A stretch of DNA of 64,000 nt. It comes from a virus (taxonomy: Duplodnaviria; Caudoviricetes). Positions 120 to 60,865 of this stretch are shown piece by piece. Both the position numbers and the translations under genes were made by a program. The stretch is taken from the IMG/VR virus record IMGVR_UViG_3300021387_000688; one strand, given 5' to 3'. Within the stretch, counting starts at the first letter, position 1, and each line of letters opens with the position of its first letter. The notes beneath the pieces are model-generated. The model saw nothing but the letters and a program-made list of their open reading frames with translations, had not been told where the DNA came from and made no database searches.

Positions 120-376
120 TATGATCTCCTTATCCAATCCTCTGTTTTTTCAGGATAACCTTTATATGTCATAACTTCTTTCAATTGAAGATTCTTTTCA
201 ATAATTTCTTTCAATTCTTTTGCAGGTTTGTCTACCCAATATCTTTGGTTTCTACCAGTAGTTATAATAGAACAATCTTTCATTCCTCTCTGGTAAGGTT
301 CAACTAATACAATATCCTGTGCTGCTACATAAAATGTCTTTACTGTAGAGTGCGTATCCTGATGTGCTTCAATCAT
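119..376 (-). CDS. hypothetical phage protein
   Basis: ORF track, GGAG RBS, tightly packed operon. Confidence 0.7.
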   Translation of the reverse strand: MIEAHQDTHSTVKTFYVAAQDIVLVEPYQRGMKDCSIITTGRNQRYWVDKPAKELKEIIEKNLQLKEVMTYKGYPEKTEDWIRRS

Positions 377-400
377 TTAAGATTCTCCGTTTGTTTCTCT

Positions 401-682
401 TTAGTTATGGCATCGTCCATAACTAACCCCTCTATCAAAAGCTAACTTCGCGATCATTTTTTCTCTAGGAGAAAGGGGTTCTTCAAAACCTTCCTCCATA
501 TCTTTAATCCAACTCTTAATTACATCTTTTTCTTGATGTTCTTTTTCTTCTTTAAACTCTTGCATCATTTCCATAAAGTCAGAAATATTTTGTTGCATTC
601 TTTTTGCCTCTATATGTGCACGGGCTTCCTTTATTTTGAGTTGTCTTTTAAATTCTTTATAAGAGTCTTCTTTTTCTTTCAT
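401..682 (-). CDS. hypothetical protein (charged, coiled-coil-like)
   Basis: ORF track, 4-nt overlap with upstream gene. Confidence 0.7.
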   Translation of the reverse strand: MKEKEDSYKEFKRQLKIKEARAHIEAKRMQQNISDFMEMMQEFKEEKEHQEKDVIKSWIKDMEEGFEEPLSPREKMIAKLAFDRGVSYGRCHN

Positions 683-1044
683 TCTTGATTTACCACATAT
701 TTATAAGATTCCCCAAATCCGTTTTCTTCATGATCCGAATGATTTGGAAGGGTTCTTACTAGACCATATTCTTCAAATACAATACAAGGACTGCATTCGC
801 AAGGTTGAACTTCTTTACAATAATCGGGATCGAAAAATCCTGCACCTACCATATAATCCCCGCGTCTTCGATAAGTACCTTTTGTTCCAGGTTTTTCAGG
901 AGGGATATATTCTTCATCATGATTTATAGCAGTGCGAGGTTCAAAATGTTCCTCTACAACATAATAACTATGATACTTACCATCTACTCGAAAATCCGGT
1001 TGCTGAAATTTACCTACGTATACTTTTAGTTTTCCTGTTTTCAT
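679..1044 (-). CDS. hypothetical protein
   Basis: ORF track, GAGGA RBS. Confidence 0.7.
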   Translation of the reverse strand: MKTGKLKVYVGKFQQPDFRVDGKYHSYYVVEEHFEPRTAINHDEEYIPPEKPGTKGTYRRRGDYMVGAGFFDPDYCKEVQPCECSPCIVFEEYGLVRTLPNHSDHEENGFGESYKYVVNQE

Positions 1045-33905: not shown

Positions 33906-34433
33906 ATGTATAAAATAACAACAGATATAGAATTGCCAATAGCTCACTGCTTATACAGAGGAGCTTACTCAGGTTTGTGTTGCGGTAATGTTTACCGCGA
34001 TTCAAAGAACGATGGAGAAAAAGATAGATACGAATTAGGAGACAAAGTATTACCGGTACTACACGGTCATAATTATTTTGTCACAGTATCTCTTTCGTCA
34101 GAAGAACTAGACAAAAATGGAATGATAGTAGACTTCAAAAAGATGAAAAAAATAATTCATTCGTATTTTGATCAATTTGATCATTCCATGATTCTTACCC
34201 CAGACAATCCTTTAGTTGAAGTTTATAAAAAGAACTTCAAAGAAAACGGGATAGAATTTGAAAGATCTAGAATTTTTGTATGGGATGAAAATCCTACTGC
34301 AGAATACATGTCTCAGTATTGGTTCGAAAAAATGAAAGAATCCTTTATTAATGAAGGACTTAAATTGACACATCTCGCAGTAACTGTAGAAGAAACTTCA
34401 AAAAATTCAGTAACATATGAAGAGGATTTGTAA
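33906..34433 (+). CDS. queD: 6-carboxytetrahydropterin synthase
   Basis: AH, LHGHNY, VDFKKMK, FDHS, NPTAE, VEET. Confidence 0.88.
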   Translation: MYKITTDIELPIAHCLYRGAYSGLCCGNVYRDSKNDGEKDRYELGDKVLPVLHGHNYFVTVSLSSEELDKNGMIVDFKKMKKIIHSYFDQFDHSMILTPDNPLVEVYKKNFKENGIEFERSRIFVWDENPTAEYMSQYWFEKMKESFINEGLKLTHLAVTVEETSKNSVTYEEDL

Positions 34434-35203
34434 TGATTAGGTACAACGAAGAAAAGAAAGCTAATGAAATCTGTTTGATTAATATTTTCAAATCAATCGA
34501 TGGAGAAGCTTTTCATGCAGGACAACCAACAGTATTTGTAAGAACATTTGGATGCAATCTTAGATGCCCTTTCTGTGATACAAAGGAGTGTTGGACAGAA
34601 GAAAACTTCAATAAAGTTTATGAAGGTAAATTGAATTTGTCTTGGATGACGGCAGATGAGATTATTACAAAAGTTGAAGAAATGGAAAAAGATTTTCCTA
34701 ATAAGTCAATTTGTTTGACAGGCGGAGAACCTTTGCTTCCTGAAAATGATCCAGTAACATTTGATCTTGTAAAAAAACTTATTTCATTACATTATGCAGT
34801 TAACGTAGAAACAGATGGCGCAGTAGATTATAAACCTTGGAAAGAAAGGTTTACAAAAATTACAATGAAGGACTATTATGGAAACCGCGAAGGTCTTTCA
34901 CTTATTACAGATTGGAAACTTCCTTGTTCAAAAATGAATAAGAAGATGATTGAATCAAATCTTTCAATATTGGATGAGTTTGATGTAATTAAATGTGTTA
35001 TTACAGATGATCCTGAAGATTGGAAAGAATTTGAAAGGATTTGTAAATCTGGAACAAAAGCAAAACTTTATTTGAGTCCATGTTTTGGTGACGTTACAAT
35101 GAGTAAGATTCCTGAATTTGTAATAGCGCATCCAGAATATCGTATAACGGCGCAGTTACAACAACACAAGTTCTTCTGGTCACCTAGTACCAAGGATGTT
35201 TAA
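34433..35203 (+). CDS. queE: 7-carboxy-7-deazaguanine synthase (radical SAM)
   Basis: SIDGE, FVRTFGCNLRCPFCDT, TGGEP, QLQQHK. Confidence 0.9.
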   Translation: MIRYNEEKKANEICLINIFKSIDGEAFHAGQPTVFVRTFGCNLRCPFCDTKECWTEENFNKVYEGKLNLSWMTADEIITKVEEMEKDFPNKSICLTGGEPLLPENDPVTFDLVKKLISLHYAVNVETDGAVDYKPWKERFTKITMKDYYGNREGLSLITDWKLPCSKMNKKMIESNLSILDEFDVIKCVITDDPEDWKEFERICKSGTKAKLYLSPCFGDVTMSKIPEFVIAHPEYRITAQLQQHKFFWSPSTKDV

Positions 35204-36163: not shown

Positions 36164-37384
36164 ATGGCTAAAGAAAAGAAAACAAATGCTACAGCAGATG
36201 ACGACTTTGATAAACTCTTAGGTTCTGTAGAAAAAGAATTCGGTGCAGTTTATTCAGGAGAAGCTGCGGCTATTCAGGATGAATATATTCTTTTGGATGC
36301 CCCACGTTTGGCTTGGGCATACGGTGGTAAACTTAAGTTGAATGCTATCCATCGTCTTAATGGTAAAGAGTCTGGTGGTAAAACAACTTTGGCAACTTAC
36401 CTTTGCGGTCAATGTCAGAAACGCAAGTTTGAAAAAGAAGGTAATTATAAAAATGCACACGTGGTTATCATTGATAACGAGCATACATTCGATGTAGTAC
36501 ATGCAAAGGATTTAGGATTACTTCTTAATGATCCTATGACAGGAAAGCCTCTTGTACATATCCTTCGTAATAAATATGTAGAAGACCAGTGCGCGGCTTG
36601 GGAAAAGATTGTAGAGTCTGGAAGAATATGTGCTTCTATTTACGACTCCGATGCAGCCGCTATTAACAAAGCAGAGTTCGATAACGAAATTGGTAAAGCA
36701 AACTTCGGTGCTGGTGCAAAGGCAAACGGTGTAGTTATTAAGAGAATGAACTGGTATGTAGATACTTTCAAGACCCCTTTGTTCTGGATTTCACAGGAAC
36801 GTGCAAATCAGGAATTGATGGCCCACTTGCCAAAACCAACAGGAGGTGAAGCTGTAAACTTCTATCCATCTACTCGTTTCCGTGTAACTCCAAAAGAGTT
36901 TATTACAAAGAGTGGAGAGATTGTAGGTATTACAATGAAGATTAAGAACTACAAGAATAAGACAGGTATTCCATTCCGTGAATGTTTATTGGATGTTTAC
37001 TTCAAAGACGGTCCAGATTATACTCATGGTATTAATGGAGAAGGTCAGTATCTTGATATGTTACTTGAACTTGGAATTATTGCACAGCACGGCGGATGGT
37101 ATTATTTATGGGAAGACCAGCCAGATAAGCTTGTTAAGATGCAGGGATGGGGCGGGGTTCAGAATTGGTTTAATGAACACCCAGATGTATTCCAGGATTT
37201 CAAAACAATGGTAAATGAAAAGATGTCTGGATATGATAGTGCACTTGATAAGAATACTGTAGAGGTAGACGAGGAAGCTGAATTCCAGAAGGAGCAGAAA
37301 GAAGCTTTAGCAAAACGTGAAGCCGCTCAGAAGGAAGTAGAAAGTAGTGAAACCAGTAACGAAGTAGAAAATATTGAGGAGTAA
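36164..37384 (+). CDS. recA: RecA/UvsX-family recombinase
   Basis: GKESGGKTT, IDNEH, YDS, ISQER, PTGGEAVNFY, KNK. Confidence 0.88.
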   Translation: MAKEKKTNATADDDFDKLLGSVEKEFGAVYSGEAAAIQDEYILLDAPRLAWAYGGKLKLNAIHRLNGKESGGKTTLATYLCGQCQKRKFEKEGNYKNAHVVIIDNEHTFDVVHAKDLGLLLNDPMTGKPLVHILRNKYVEDQCAAWEKIVESGRICASIYDSDAAAINKAEFDNEIGKANFGAGAKANGVVIKRMNWYVDTFKTPLFWISQERANQELMAHLPKPTGGEAVNFYPSTRFRVTPKEFITKSGEIVGITMKIKNYKNKTGIPFRECLLDVYFKDGPDYTHGINGEGQYLDMLLELGIIAQHGGWYYLWEDQPDKLVKMQGWGGVQNWFNEHPDVFQDFKTMVNEKMSGYDSALDKNTVEVDEEAEFQKEQKEALAKREAAQKEVESSETSNEVENIEE

Positions 37385-37422
37385 CCACTATCTATAATTA
37401 AATAAAAAGTAGGGGGCTGTGT

Positions 37423-37563
37423 ATGGGATACGAGTCTGCGGATGATGAATTTAATTTGTATGGAGTCATTGCTTCTGACGAAGTGGATGACGATAACTAT
37501 AATGAATCAGCCGAGGCTATGACCTTCGACCCTACTGAAGAATTATTAGACGAAGCAATTTAA
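37423..37563 (+). CDS. small highly acidic protein (46 aa, not in ORF track)
   Basis: MGYESADDEFNLYGVIASDEVDDDNYNESAEAMTFDPTEELLDEAI; AGGGGG RBS, CTATAAT upstream. Confidence 0.6.
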   Translation: MGYESADDEFNLYGVIASDEVDDDNYNESAEAMTFDPTEELLDEAI

Positions 37564-37604
37564 TTACAAATTGCGCTAATTATAAACATTAAGGAATTAA
37601 GGCT

Positions 37605-37706
37605 ATGAAAAACGTATTGAACAGGAGTTTAGTATTATTACAACAACAAATAGCCATAACTTTGCCTTTATATAGAAACAGATATTATTGGAGAGATAAG
37701 GGGTGA
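37605..37706 (+). CDS. leader peptide of tRNA array 1 (33 aa)
   Basis: MKNVLNRSLVLLQQQIAITLPLYRNRYYWRDKG; AAGGA upstream; stop overlaps antiterminator arm. Confidence 0.75.
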   Translation: MKNVLNRSLVLLQQQIAITLPLYRNRYYWRDKG

Positions 37707-37766
37707 GTTGATTCCGAGAGAGTTTAGAATTCAACACCCCTTTAGAGAAATCTAAAGGGGTTTTTT
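37698..37766 (+). promoter_or_regulatory. transcription attenuator (antiterminator/terminator) 1
   Basis: AAGGGGTG-AGTTGA pairs with TCAAC-ACCCCTT, competing with terminator ACCCCTTTAGA-GAAA-TCTAAAGGGGT + T tract. Confidence 0.8.
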
Positions 37767-37847
37767 ATTGGTAGAAAATTTCTAATCTTTTTAGATAAAA
37801 AAGGATCGGGGATTAGCTATATTGAAAAAGTCAGTTAATTAATAATT

Positions 37848-38040
37848 GATAACAATCAAACAAAAGATCCTTACTGAAGTAGGTCGAGTAACTGAGGTAA
37901 CGTTTAGTAAGTGAAAGAATGAGGGCAGTTAAGACTGAGGTAGATACGATCATGAAATAACCGATGTATAGGCGGTGTAAAGATGATTGTTGAAGGTTGG
38001 ATGCAGACGGCAGCGATAAATGCATCAGAGTTTGATTATC
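37848..38040 (+). ncRNA. unassigned structured RNA at head of array 1
   Basis: ends pair (GATAA-CAATCAAAC / GTTTGATTATC); internal hairpins; no plus-strand ORF. Confidence 0.4.
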
Positions 38041-38041
38041 T

Positions 38042-38127
38042 GGGTAGGTGTGCCGAATGGTTTGAAGGCAGCGGACTGTAAATCCGTGACATTAGAAACA
38101 CTGGGGGTTCGAATCCCTCCCTGCCCA
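38042..38127 (+). tRNA. tRNA-Tyr(GTA)
   Basis: cloverleaf, GCGGA-CTGTAAA-TCCGT, long variable arm. Confidence 0.9.
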
Positions 38128-38131
38128 TCAT

Positions 38132-38214
38132 GCGTTCATGACCGGAGATGGCATCGGGCCTGACTGTAAATCAGGTGTATTCGTACATGGGGAGTTCGAG
38201 TCTCTCAGGGCGCA
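38132..38214 (+). tRNA. tRNA-Tyr(GTA), second divergent copy
   Basis: CCTGA-CTGTAAA-TCAGG, TTCGAG T-loop. Confidence 0.8.
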
Positions 38215-38219
38215 CTTTT

Positions 38220-38243
38220 GATCTTTGGCATTATTAAGGAAGG
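38220..38243 (+). promoter_or_regulatory. boxA-like antitermination element
   Basis: GATCTTTGGCA..TAAGGAAGG, repeated at 60866. Confidence 0.5.
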
Positions 38244-38254
38244 ATTTTCTTTAT

Positions 38255-38340
38255 GCACTCGTGGCGGAACTGGTAGACGCCCAGGACTTAAAATCCTGTG
38301 TCGGTTAAACGGCGTACGGGTTCGATTCCCGTCGGGTGCA
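38255..38340 (+). tRNA. tRNA-Leu(TAA)
   Basis: CAGGA-CTTAAAA-TCCTG, variable arm. Confidence 0.92.
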
Positions 38341-38459
38341 CTAATAGTTGCGGCTACACAACTTAAAAAGATACAACCGATCGAAGGGAACTGAGTATGT
38401 CCTTGTTAACGTTGTTATGTAGTGTTTGAAGGTTGCTGCAAACCGCACCTTCGTTTTAT

Positions 38460-38533
38460 GGTCCCGTAGCTTATCTGGATAAAGCATTTGCCTTCTAAGC
38501 AAAGGATTGGGGGTTCGAGTCCCTCCGGGATCA
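38460..38533 (+). tRNA. tRNA-Arg(TCT)
   Basis: TTTGC-CTTCTAA-GCAAA. Confidence 0.92.
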
Positions 38534-38542
38534 CTATTTTAT

Positions 38543-38613
38543 TCTCCCGTGGTGTAGCGGTCGCACATGAGGTTTTGATCCTTACAGGCTGGGTTCGAGT
38601 CCTAGCGGGAGAA
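38543..38613 (+). tRNA. tRNA-Gln(TTG)
   Basis: TGAGG-TTTTGAT-CCTTA. Confidence 0.88.
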
Positions 38614-38618
38614 CTACA

Positions 38619-39445
38619 GGGTTGGTTTCCGATCCTATTAAAAGATAAACGGTGAATACATAAGCCGTGAAAGTCATATTCGTAAAGGTATGGCGGTGGG
38701 AATTTATTTTCCACTCTACGTGAAAACAATGCATCTAACTTGTGATGGCGTTGACCGACGGCAAGTGCTGAGGTTGATAGTTGCAAGGCTCGGTAGTCGA
38801 CGAGCTTGGTTCAAGTTGAGAAGTTGCTTTCTTAATAGCAACTTTGACTACAAGAATGACAGAAGGTGTATTTATCCTCTAAGAAAGAATTGCAAGTTCC
38901 CATAGAGAGGATAACGAACAACGGTAGGTTCTTCAAAGAAATGAGGAGAATTGAAGTCAGTAGATCGAGTAGTTTTTGCAGACGAAAGTAGAAAGGTGAA
39001 GTTTTCTAAACCAGTCAAAAGCTGGCAAGGAACAAGCTAGACCTCATCTTTCAAGGTAGTCAACCGAAATTCTTATGATTAACTCAGTTGGATAGAGTAA
39101 TTGCCTCCTAAGCAATCTGTCGTAGGTTCAATTCCTACATCACAAGCAAAAGTGTCTAGCACAGCCAAATGAAAATGGCGTTATCCAGGTGAAATATACT
39201 GGCTTGGTGAGTACCGCAAGGAAAGTCAAGAATGGAATGAAGTAGTCAACTGGTAAGAGCCCGCAAGCTCTTCAGGCCGCAAGCCGCTAGGGATGAAAAA
39301 GGAAATTATAAGTTTGGTTGTAGTGAGTTCGACAACACTCTTTAAGTTGTTCGCCATGCGTTCTACTATCAGAAATGGTAGTGTGATTGAAGTTCCGAAA
39401 GGGATTAAAATGAACGTTGTTTAGGTCAATAAATCTCAGCCTTTT
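38619..39445 (+). ncRNA. GOLLD-like giant structured RNA with embedded tRNA-Arg
   Basis: about 830 nt without a credible ORF, many GNRA-capped hairpins (GCAA/GAAA), 3' end AATCTCAGCC, internal tRNA, located in a phage tRNA array. Confidence 0.55.
39073..39146 (+). tRNA. tRNA-Arg(CCT) embedded in GOLLD-like RNA
   Basis: ATTGC-CTCCTAA-GCAAT; one acceptor mismatch. Confidence 0.75.
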
Positions 39446-39454
39446 CATTTTTTT

Positions 39455-39526
39455 CAATCTGTAGTTTAACGGATAGAACTTCAGCCTCCTAAGCTGAAAG
39501 TGCGAGTTCAATTCTCGCCAGGTTGA
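39455..39526 (+). tRNA. tRNA-Arg(CCT)
   Basis: TCAGC-CTCCTAA-GCTGA. Confidence 0.88.
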
Positions 39527-39530
39527 CTAT

Positions 39531-39667
39531 ATAGCATAAGTTGTTCCTATTAAGAGCATGACTAAAATCTGCTGGCAATGCGCCGTATGGGTTCGACTCC
39601 CATCGATCCTCTAAAGGGGATTGTGGTGGAATGGTAGACACGGCAGACTCATTATACAACCCGCTAT
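39531..39667 (+). ncRNA. circularly permuted tRNA-Leu-like RNA (YrlA-like) in conserved frame
   Basis: 3' half (39563-39611) precedes 5' half (39616-39649); acceptor stem closed by TAAA; flanks pair. Confidence 0.8.
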
Positions 39668-39676
39668 ATTTTTTAT

Positions 39677-39749
39677 AGGTCCTTAGTGTTAACGGTTAGC
39701 ACGACAGTCTCCAAAACTGTTTGTGAGGGTTCGAATCCTTCAGGGCCTG
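39677..39749 (+). tRNA. tRNA-Trp(CCA)
   Basis: ACAGT-CTCCAAA-ACTGT. Confidence 0.92.
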
Positions 39750-39915
39750 AAACTGAATGGGTAGCCACTGAAAAGTAAATAGACTGTTTATGAAGTAGGG
39801 GTCCAAACAGAGCTTGTCGCTGATTACATATCAAAGAGTTATTAGTCTAGTCAACTAGATTCGGAGATGGTTTGAAGCTAAACAGGATGACAAAGGGCGA
39901 GTCCTGATTTTTTAT

Positions 39916-39999
39916 CGTTCGGTGGCGGAATTGGTAGACGCACTGGACTCAAAATCCAGCGGTGGCAACACCATGAGGGTTCGATTCCCTCCCGGACGA
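39916..39999 (+). tRNA. tRNA-Leu(CAA)
   Basis: CTGGA-CTCAAAA-TCCAG, variable arm. Confidence 0.92.
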
Positions 40000-40129
40000 C
40001 TCAAATCCCTCTTCCTAAAGTTGGGAGAAAAAGTAACTTTCGGATAGCGGTACAGCCGCATCTTTTTTCTATCCAGTATGAAAGTTATGAGGACGGTGAA
40101 AGGCTCCCGTCCATTTTTTTAAGGAAAAG

Positions 40130-40271
40130 AAATTGCACAGAGTGTTCCTATTATTGCTTTGGGAGCCCTGGGTTGTAGGTTCGAGTCCTACCCTGCCAAC
40201 TATTTCAAAAAGTTAAAAACTTTGGCAGGTAGCTCAACTGGTAGAGCAAGGATTTTTACACTTCGCAATTT
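40130..40271 (+). ncRNA. circularly permuted tRNA-Pro-like RNA (YrlA-like) in conserved frame
   Basis: TTGGGA + T-arm + CCTGCCA precede TGGCAGG + D-arm; frame GCACAGAGTGTTCCTAT...TACACTTCGC. Confidence 0.8.
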
Positions 40272-40278
40272 TTATATA

Positions 40279-40346
40279 TGAGGTTTAGCTTAGACTCGGT
40301 TAAAGCAACGTGCACAGAAAGGAGGTTCGATTCCTTCTAACCTCAA
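40279..40346 (+). ncRNA. tRNA-like RNA lacking an anticodon arm
   Basis: intact acceptor (TGAGGTT/AACCTCA), D arm and T arm; only about 14 nt between D and T arms. Confidence 0.6.
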
Positions 40347-40349
40347 GCA

Positions 40350-40791
40350 AAGCCGTAGGGAGTAGGATAACTCTTTAGCTTATAGGTTCAGTACTAACCT
40401 GTGAACTAATCACTCCCGAACTAGGTACAGGAACGAAAACTGAAGTGGGGAAGAAGCGGAGGTTGGATACTGTGGTAATCCTAGAGCATGTGAAAGTAGG
40501 AGAGTTGACTTTGGAGAGTGCCAACTTAATGTTCAACCCTGATCCAAGTATCTCTTCCCTTATAGGAAGGGTACGAAAAATGCATTGGATAGAATTAGAT
40601 GCTCCTACATATAAAAAATGACGATTATCGCACACGAGATGATCAAAAAGGTGCAACAACGGTGGGGAAAGCCCATGCCGGTTAAAAGAGCAGATCTGCG
40701 CGATGTCCTTCGACGGTATCTGCCGTAAGAGGGTAGGGGAACCTTGTAGACAAGGGACTGAAGGGGTGTACTCGATCCGAAAAGTTATCTT
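40350..40791 (+). ncRNA. unassigned large (about 430 nt) structured RNA
   Basis: closing helix AGGATAACT/AGTTATCTT, many internal hairpins, ends in T tract. Confidence 0.55.
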
Positions 40792-40801
40792 TTTTTTTAT
40801 T

Positions 40802-40892
40802 TCAGGATAATTCCTGCAAGGTCCGCGGATGTAGGAAATGGAAACCTTATAGATCAATAAGGAATAGGACGTTCGAATCGTTTGATCCTGAC
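40802..40892 (+). ncRNA. non-canonical tRNA-like RNA
   Basis: TCAGGAT/ATCCTGA acceptor, GTTCGAATC T-loop, 8-bp first arm, CCTTAT/ATAAGG second arm. Confidence 0.5.
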
Positions 40893-41149
40893 TTCACAAC
40901 AGCTGGTGACAATTATCCAGGAACACTTAGAGTCCGCTAAGGTTAGCTGCAACTAACTGGATGCTCAATGTATAGCAAAGACTGTGCAAAGATGACTGGA
41001 AGAAAGAGACACGTGGAAGGGTGTCGGGTAACTTTGCTACCTCCATAACGAGAAACCCGCCGTGATTTGCAGTCAACGATACAGTTTCTCTACTTCCAAT
41101 TTTTGGAGTGATCCATATCGGATTATTAGACATTAAGTCTGAAACATAT

Positions 41150-41232
41150 TGGAGCGTATCTCAGCTGTCTTATAAACAGTCCGGTATAATTCGAGTAATT
41201 GGTGGATGAGGGTTCAACTCCCTCCGCTCCAA
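41150..41232 (+). tRNA. arm-rearranged tRNA-Ile(TAT)-like RNA
   Basis: perfect acceptor and T arm; anticodon arm GCTGT-CTTATAA-ACAGT directly after acceptor; TAATTGGT D-loop-like motif lies 3' of it. Confidence 0.6.
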
Positions 41233-41321
41233 CTATATGTAATGATATCATTACAGGAATAAGATAAAATGGACTACCCCAACATAATCGCGATATGTGG
41301 GTAACGAAAGAGTAGTCAAAA

Positions 41322-41393
41322 TCCGCCGTAGCTCATCTGGTCAGAGCAGCTCTTTTTAAGGGTATGTAGTGGGTTCGACCCCCACCGGTGGTT
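41322..41393 (+). tRNA. tRNA-Lys(TTT), atypical short anticodon stem
   Basis: canonical D and T arms; GCTC-TTTTTAA-GGGT. Confidence 0.55.
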
Positions 41394-41396
41394 TAT

Positions 41397-60490: not shown

Positions 60491-60560
60491 TTAGAAAACT
60501 CTCCCAGTTGCACTAACTATATTCATTATATAAGATTTATTAGAAAGGAGATTAAATTCA

Positions 60561-60680
60561 ATGTTATCAACTTTAAGAAACATAGCAATTGTAAGTATCA
60601 TTGAATGCGACAGTCCAGTTGTCGTAGCTCCTATTGCATGCGCAGAAGAAATTGCGGATGATGAACCTGATAAAAGTTGA
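60561..60680 (+). CDS. leader peptide of tRNA array 2 (39 aa)
   Basis: MLSTLRNIAIVSIIECDSPVVVAPIACAEEIADDEPDKS; AAGGAG RBS; stop overlaps antiterminator arm. Confidence 0.8.
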   Translation: MLSTLRNIAIVSIIECDSPVVVAPIACAEEIADDEPDKS

Positions 60681-60734
60681 GCCTTATAGTTTTTGTAAAT
60701 TGTAAGGCTCTTCAGAAATGAAGAGCCTTTTTTT
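60679..60734 (+). promoter_or_regulatory. transcription attenuator (antiterminator/terminator) 2
   Basis: GAGCCTTATA pairs with TGTAAGGCTC, competing with terminator AAGGCTCTTCA-GAAA-TGAAGAGCCTT + T tract. Confidence 0.8.
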
Positions 60735-60865
60735 ATCCGATTTTTAATTTTCGGGTAGGAAATAAAAAAGAAAAAGTTTTTTTAACTTTTTCGAAAAAGA
60801 AGGAATTGAAAATTCCTATATTATTAACATAAGAAACAATTAATTAAAAGTTAAAAGTTTCTTAA

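Follow-up and report, generated by a model that had tools for sequence, protein, structure and literature searches.

The DNA examined here, hereafter the window, is a stretch of 64,000 nucleotides with a GC content of 35%, and its source is a very large phage of the animal gut or rumen. Its RecA-like protein, encoded at 36164–37384, has relatives (50–98% identical) only in gut metagenome contigs from ENA and Logan, which reach up to 415 kb, and shows at most 30% identity to proteins of the named-phage collection. Near-identical DNA is present in sheep and bovine gut runs. Adjoining ClpP and RecA are 7-deazaguanine (queuosine-precursor) genes (33906–35203, + strand), which are PTPS/QueD-like and radical-SAM QueE-like; in relatives, QueC and GTP cyclohydrolase I are present as well (8391–12846 in contig L002). 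These pathway genes suggest deazaguanine modification of DNA or tRNA.

Downstream of recA lies a small open reading frame, leader ORF 1 (37605–37706, + strand), which starts with ATG at 37605 and comprises 33 codons plus a TGA stop at 37704–37706 (32 sense codons). The ORF and its 33-residue peptide are as given in the preliminary description, and a Shine-Dalgarno sequence, AAGGA, can be read at 37591–37595 (+), 9 nt upstream of the ATG. The peptide matches no family in Pfam or PHROG. The first tRNA gene of a large cluster, array 1, lies 335 nt downstream of the ORF on the same strand.

Two promoter-like sites are candidates for the start of the leader 1 transcript. The first is a -10 motif of the CTATAWT family, CTATAAT at 37392–37398 (+), upstream of a 46-aa ORF; the second is a sigma-70-like site (CTGACG, 17-nt spacer, TATAAT) at 37475–37503 (+), inside the same 46-aa ORF, which has its -10 element within another CTATAAT copy and the best score of the region (10/12). 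A scan of terminator-like hairpins found no terminator between the end of recA (37384) and position 37736, so that read-through from recA may also feed leader 1. The 46-aa ORF itself (37423–37563, +), situated between recA and leader 1, encodes a very acidic peptide without a Pfam or PHROG family.

Array 1 (38041–41394, + strand) contains the genes presumed to be regulated: tRNA-Tyr(GTA), Leu(TAA), Arg(TCT), Gln(TTG), two Arg(CCT), Trp, Leu(CAA), and Lys(TTT), together with GOLLD-like and YrlA-like RNAs. The tRNA list drawn up initially is correct, with the qualification that two members are recovered only at relaxed thresholds. These are a second tRNA-Tyr (38132–38214, +; Rfam only, 31 bits) and a tRNA with a long variable arm and the anticodon UAU (about 41140–41233, +; 35 bits in Rfam, and relaxed ARAGORN). 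The latter reads ATA, but its variable arm is of the class-II type, an unusual feature in a tRNA-Ile, and its amino-acid identity is uncertain. A possibly missed tRNA-Asn was not found: the search of array 1 returned no more than a tRNA-like fragment at 40280–40345, which lacks an anticodon arm, and relaxed ARAGORN matches there were rejected as junk.

Several other RNA features lie in or before the array. A match to the full GOLLD model covers 38991–39442 (+; 97.8 bits, E = 1e-25, under the gathering score of 150), with tRNA-Arg(CCT) at 39073–39147 embedded in it. The array's 1.1-kb gap holds a match to YrlA, a Y RNA-like RNA (40151–40274, +; 43.8 bits, E = 1e-7), and the tRNA-like element at 40280–40345 (26.8 bits) lies directly 3' of it. 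In the D-arm region of the first tRNA-Tyr (38049–38070), about 18 clustered differences occur in the 98.6% identical relative L007 and in RNA contigs; comparison of the sequences suggests that this D-arm replacement is due to recombination between tRNA-Tyr variants. The region 37767–38045 has a modest folding z-score (-2.6) and no Rfam family was found in it. Within it, a 39-nt stretch between the terminator and tRNA-Tyr (37887–37925, +) recurs with one mismatch in two rumen metatranscriptomes, where the copies belong to RNA contigs of other organisms and have different flanks with similar GAGGTAGATA repeats. The stretch could be an RNA motif conserved in array precursors.

The window contains a sister unit (60517–60735, + strand) in front of a second group of tRNA genes, array 2 (60899 to at least 63438, +). 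It consists of a CTATATT promoter (60517), an AAGGAG sequence (60545–60550), the 39-codon leader ORF 2 (60561–60680), an antiterminator (60679–60710), and a GAAA-loop terminator (60704–60729) followed by a T-tract. The two leaders were scored against both arrays, using as codon sets the codons readable by the tRNAs of each array. The gene background was taken from 45 long ORFs of the window (15,289 codons), in which array-1 codons make up 28% and array-2 codons 37%.

Each leader matches its own array only, which is what the cross-scoring check proposed in the preliminary description had anticipated. Leader 1 has 21 array-1 codons and 5 array-2 codons among its 32 sense codons, and leader 2 has 5 and 25, respectively, among 38 (Fisher's test on two leaders and two codon sets, p = 2e-6). 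Leader 1 is thus enriched in array-1 codons over the 0.28 seen in genes (p = 1e-5) and depleted in array-2 codons (p = 0.007). The 13,804 stretches of 32 codons taken from real genes contain no more than 17 array-1 codons each and so never reach 21, and in a ranking of 674 small ORFs (20–70 codons, all six frames) leader 1 is first for array 1 and leader 2 is first for array 2. The match is specific to the reading frame, with 21 codons in the ORF frame of leader 1 against 10 and 9 in the other two; for leader 2 the corresponding counts are 25, 8, and 3. It persists when the uncertain UAU tRNA is left out (19/32, p = 8e-5) and when only codons 2–27 are counted (17/26, p = 8e-5). In the same ranking, the 46-aa ORF at 37423–37563 is second of 674 for array-2-type codons (27/45); it may serve as another sensor or as an acidic peptide associated with RecA, or have neither role.

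The codon content of leader 1 was described from the outset as matching array 1 down to synonymous choice, and this is confirmed: all 6 Leu codons are TTA or TTG, all 4 Arg codons are AGA or AGG, and both Ile codons are ATA, in addition to three tandem CAA, three TAT, TGG, AAA, and AAG. Only CCT, listed with them, does not belong, as it is a Pro codon served by array 2. The combined probability of the synonymous choices (6/6 Leu TTR, 4/4 Arg AGR, 2/2 Ile ATA) is about 0.001, and this agreement is weak on its own. Two caveats raised at the same time remain valid. Three AAC (Asn) codons lack a partner tRNA in array 1, as do Ser, Thr, and Gly codons of the leader, and AT-richness explains part of the codon excess. 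A first-order Markov model built on the leader's own bases raises the expectation to 13/32, yet 21 is reached in only 0.28% of stop-free simulations (p = 0.003). Under a model of local intergenic composition, 0.04% of simulations reach 21 array-1 codons (p = 4e-4), and for leader 2 the observed match is reached in at most 0.004% of simulations in the composition models (4e-5).

The leader is followed by an intrinsic terminator (37736–37766, +), which begins 30 nt past the stop codon and has an 11-bp stem (37736–37761), a GAAA loop, and T6 (-17 kcal/mol); the proposed end of transcription is at 37762–37766. The competing structure is an antiterminator, whose 5' arm (37698–37711, +) reads AAGGGGT, a GA bulge, and GTTGA, and whose 3' arm (37731–37742, +) reads TCAAC and ACCCCTT. 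AAGGGGT at 37698–37704 pairs with ACCCCTT at 37736–37742, and GTTGA at 37707–37711 pairs with TCAAC at 37731–37735, giving 12 bp with a 2-nt bulge (-15.4 kcal/mol), which is the minimum-energy fold once the 3' arm of the terminator is omitted. The terminator and antiterminator are mutually exclusive because they share 7 nt, which form the end of the antiterminator 3' arm and the beginning of the terminator 5' arm. Forced folds of the full leader differ by about 4 kcal/mol (-36.6 with the terminator, -32.4 with the antiterminator). The TGA at 37704–37706 lies inside the antiterminator 5' arm, in agreement with the earlier claim of a stop codon in that arm followed by a GAAA-loop terminator with a T-tract. 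By geometry alone, a ribosome at the stop codon sits in the arm 37698–37711, and codons 2–27 lie outside it, at least 13 nt upstream.

The strength of such alternative pairing can be expressed as the free energy gained if the 5' arm of a terminator is allowed to pair with the 60 nt upstream. Among 19 terminator-like hairpins of the window, the largest gains are those of leader 2 (-15.0 kcal/mol) and leader 1 (-9.0 kcal/mol); the third largest (-8.6 kcal/mol) is an antisense artefact inside a tRNA gene, and ordinary gene terminators gain 0 to -4.5 kcal/mol. Dinucleotide shuffles of the upstream 60 nt reach the observed gain in 24 of 1000 cases for leader 1 (p = 0.024) and in 2 of 1000 for leader 2 (p = 0.002). 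Taken alone, the antiterminator of leader 1 is only moderately unusual. The terminator-state fold of leader 1 contains only a weak helix (37655–37705), and a clear anti-antiterminator (1:2) helix was not seen in it.

Leader 2 has the same architecture as leader 1, as had been noted, with the stop in or at the antiterminator arm and a terminator with a GAAA loop. Its stop codon is at the first base of the antiterminator 5' arm, and a clear 1:2 helix is formed by 60587–60595 with 60682–60691 (codons 9–12 against the antiterminator arm). In L022, a 95% identical strain, leader 2 has five changes, three of them non-synonymous, and only a single loop base differs in the antiterminator and terminator. 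This pattern fits a sensor whose peptide sequence does not matter. A dedicated promoter, ribosome-binding site, and terminator for an unconserved 39-aa peptide are difficult to explain except as a sensor.

The leader 1 locus was found only in relatives that are 95–99% identical. In L001 (95% identical overall), the 162 nt of 37605–37766 have 1 change where 6.5 are expected (p = 0.011), and the adjoining 46-aa ORF has 8 changes in 141 nt. The sole change in the leader and switch converts TTA to TTG, which is still within the range of the array-1 Leu tRNAs; an identical single change is present in L007. No relative was found in IMG/VR, and a scan of JGI metagenomes returned only an identical short contig. 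RecA relatives at 60–72% identity have no tRNA array beside recA, contigs with relatives of the downstream 473-aa protein (65–71% identity) break inside the array, and relatives of the 282-aa protein preceding leader 2 are followed by other genes. Evidence of covariation is therefore lacking, because only near-identical relatives were found, and those at about 70% are non-syntenic or on contigs broken at the array. At 170–874 (- strand) of L019, a 314-kb relative, tRNA-Gly(TCC) and tRNA-Leu(TAG) follow a Fic-domain gene after a gap of 19 nt without a terminator. A leader unit is not a feature of all tRNA blocks in this group of phages.

Between terminator 1 and array 1, a CTATATT motif is present at 37817–37823 (+). 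It was listed as a caveat in the preliminary description, and the caveat stands, since the site is a genuine and complete occurrence of the promoter motif of this phage and resembles the copies that precede ordinary genes. Further CTATATT copies are found between terminator 2 and array 2 (60816) and before leader 2 (60517). The general motif, a T-rich stretch followed by CTATAWT (CTATATT or CTATAAT), precedes many genes of the window (e.g., 5733-, 9125-, 18953+, 44603-, 60816+) and typically lies just past the terminator of the preceding gene (e.g., 35249/35296 and 36090/36135). CTATAWT copies often precede ATTAACATG, whose position right after the motif implies mRNAs that begin with the ATG and lack a leader; elsewhere the motif is followed by an AAGGAG leader. 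Several copies have a TTTTCGAAA box upstream. The terminator at 37736 is also the end of the recA unit, being the first terminator past recA. With a genuine motif copy at 37817, the attenuator may be just one of two inputs to array 1, which might then be independent of read-through, and both arrays probably have a second, attenuator-independent promoter. This promoter weakens the case for the attenuator as sole control, but the reciprocal codon matches and the antiterminators are not explained away by it.

Assembled contigs of four gut and rumen metatranscriptomes were compared with 37300–38200. One RNA contig of 1,950 nt runs from the end of recA to tRNA-Tyr, spanning 37300–38093, and contigs of the three other studies extend from 37684 to 38132, from 37702 to 37920, and from 37707 to 38088, all passing through the terminator. 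None of the contigs in the four metatranscriptomes begins just past the 37817 motif. All that this shows is that molecules linking the switch and the array exist in RNA preparations, as would be compatible with read-through; the true ends of transcripts cannot be read from assembled contigs, and carried-over DNA is not excluded. Uncovered stretches and the depth figures of the contigs were left out of the evidence. The clustering of contig starts near 37700 hints weakly at a 5' end that is either processed or primary.

Given the observed anatomy, codon statistics, alternative structures, and RNA contigs across the terminator, leader 1 is interpreted as a ribosome-mediated transcription attenuator of the trp/ilv style, exerting negative feedback on the supply of array-1 tRNAs. 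We assign this reading a probability of roughly 0.7 in the absence of any experimental test. It is the interpretation proposed initially, and it is supported in silico, with every computable prediction turning out as expected. The attenuator would gate read-through from upstream promoters into array 1 by sensing how fast array-1 codons are decoded. The promoter in use is inferred, and leader-carrying transcripts may start near 37392 or 37497 or run on from recA. Translation of the leader and the coupling of stalling to termination are likewise inferred. If Leu-TTR, Arg-AGR, Gln-CAA, Tyr, Ile-ATA, Lys, and Trp codons are decoded fast, the ribosome would reach the TGA at 37704 and cover 37698–37711, the GAAA-loop terminator would form, and transcription would end at 37762–37766. 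Scarcity of any one of these tRNAs would make the ribosome stall within codons 2–27, leaving the 5' arm free to pair with 37731–37742; with the antiterminator formed there would be no terminator, and RNA polymerase would continue into array 1. The biological trigger can only be inferred, and host codon bias, host shut-off, and tRNA-cleaving defence nucleases are possible causes of scarcity. The new tRNAs would relieve the stall and close the negative-feedback loop.

One alternative is that the recA unit ends, at leader 1, with a small gene of no special kind or with a chance ORF that is not translated, followed by its normal terminator. Array 1 would then be transcribed solely from 37817, and the codon match and the alternative hairpin would be coincidental. 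Intergenic regions of this phage are as a rule built of a terminator and then CTATATT, recA and 37736 have no terminator between them, and TTA, AGA, CAA, TAT, AAA, and ATA are all favoured at 35% GC, as the Markov expectation of 13/32 reflects. The coincidence would, however, have to be a joint one and to have occurred twice, with opposite codon sets, exactly at the two arrays, and at ORFs each ranking 1/674. It would also have to produce a match confined to one frame and exceeding that of the leaders' own composition (p = 0.003 and 4e-5), and to place the two strongest antiterminators of the window at these two sites. Leader 2, moreover, has its own promoter and ribosome-binding site and evolves freely in amino acids (3/5 changes non-synonymous) with the RNA switch fixed, and the RNA contigs cross the terminator rather than begin after 37830. 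We regard this explanation as unlikely.

Two further explanations were considered. The leader could be translated and codon-tuned and yet control the stability or processing of the precursor RNA, the hairpins being a processing or stability element, or its peptide could act in trans. RNA contigs of three studies start at 37684–37707, the foot of the structure, and coverage of the leader ORF is lower, a pattern that fits a stable processed 5' end; a promoter motif exists downstream, and trans-acting leader peptides are known, an example being peTrpL (PMC7298713). Against such roles, exclusive pairing and the position of the stop codon are specific requirements of attenuation, and the hairpin at 37736–37761 with T6 is a canonical intrinsic terminator; the leader 1 peptide is without a family, and the sister peptide is not conserved in amino acids. 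This possibility is held to be slightly more doubtful than simple coincidence. Alternatively, the contigs beginning at 37702 and 37707 in two studies could reflect transcripts started near 37695 by an internal promoter (GATATT/TATTAT, 37682–37688), with the structure, free of ribosomes, acting as a constitutive 5' stem of the array precursor and with an incidental ORF. ATATTATT at 37683–37690 does match the core of the phage motif CTATATTATT, but it lacks the motif's CT and the T at -12, one RNA contig starts at 37684, upstream of the putative start, and another spans the whole leader. As an internal promoter also leaves the frame-specific codon match and the parallel leader 2 unexplained, it is considered very improbable.

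An independent case of this architecture is found in LR756511.1, an uncultured phage of 595 kb with 60 tRNAs. A 27-codon ORF follows a GAAAGGAA site and precedes an array of four Ser, five Leu, and two Tyr tRNAs. Of its 26 sense codons, 15 are Ser, Leu, or Tyr codons (p = 3e-5 at a background of 20%), with all six Ser codons in use, and a strong 17-bp terminator after the ORF ends 37 nt before the first tRNA. As in leader 1, a small ORF with a ribosome-binding site and rich in the amino acids of the following tRNAs is succeeded by a GAAA-type terminator and the array; unlike in leader 1, the sequence is unrelated and the codon set is different.

Phage tRNA genes are usually discussed as a means of codon-usage compensation or of escape from tRNA-targeting defences, and to our knowledge the control of their expression is largely unknown. 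The present window holds two proposed sensors with complementary codon sets. We lean towards the view, without treating it as established, that giant phages hold each tRNA block under its own closed-loop control, with a multi-codon leader that opens the terminator only on slow decoding of exactly those codons that the block serves. If true, tRNAs would be replaced on demand, e.g., after cleavage of host tRNA by anticodon nucleases or after host shut-off. An attenuator tuned to an array would be a direct sensor of tRNA supply and would extend the trp/ilv logic from biosynthesis to the decoding machinery. Such elements would yield compact, programmable, codon-specific sensors for synthetic biology, and in annotation they could be used to recognise the tRNA blocks that a phage treats as units. 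Full-text literature searches found no account of tRNA genes, or of tRNA arrays in phages, being controlled by a leader peptide or an attenuator.

Among known systems, T-boxes work without translation and recognise uncharged tRNA by direct binding, for which they use a specifier codon and the conserved T-box sequence. They share with the mechanism proposed for leader 1 a terminator/antiterminator switch responding to tRNA status and are common in Firmicutes, a plausible host group here because of the AAGGAG ribosome-binding sites. In leader 1, in contrast, the proposed sensor is a translated ORF, and a search of the window for the T-box riboswitch (RF00230) gave no match, either at the gathering cutoff or at E <= 1. 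Judged by its sequence, the leader 1 element is not a T-box. The pheM leader of pheST, which encodes Phe-tRNA synthetase in Escherichia coli, mediates attenuation in response to the supply of charged tRNA and resembles the mechanism proposed for leader 1 in that a component of the translation machinery is controlled through a leader peptide, but it concerns a synthetase gene and one amino acid and is chromosomal. A Phe-rich leader of the E. coli tRNA-Phe gene pheV was considered as a precedent and rejected, the 100 nt before pheV in MG1655 being without such an ORF.

The closest resemblance is to the leader-peptide attenuators of enterobacteria, which include ilvGMEDA (Ile, Leu, and Val codons), thrL (Thr and Ile), trpL, hisL, pheL, and leuL. 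Attenuators of the ilvGMEDA/thrL type have, like leader 1 as interpreted here, a short translated ORF enriched in the sensed codons, several amino acids per leader, and a terminator with an overlapping, exclusive antiterminator that is blocked by the ribosome finishing at the stop codon. They regulate biosynthetic enzymes, whereas the presumed targets of leader 1 are tRNA genes, and they contain runs of codons for 1–3 amino acids, whereas leader 1 matches the isoacceptor-specific, synonymous codons of 7–8 tRNA species. Unlike them, leader 1 is phage-borne, has a promoter-like site past its terminator, and has no evident 1:2 helix. What would be new relative to classical attenuators is the regulation of tRNA genes and the sensing of 7–8 tRNA species at the isoacceptor level; the anatomy itself is classical.
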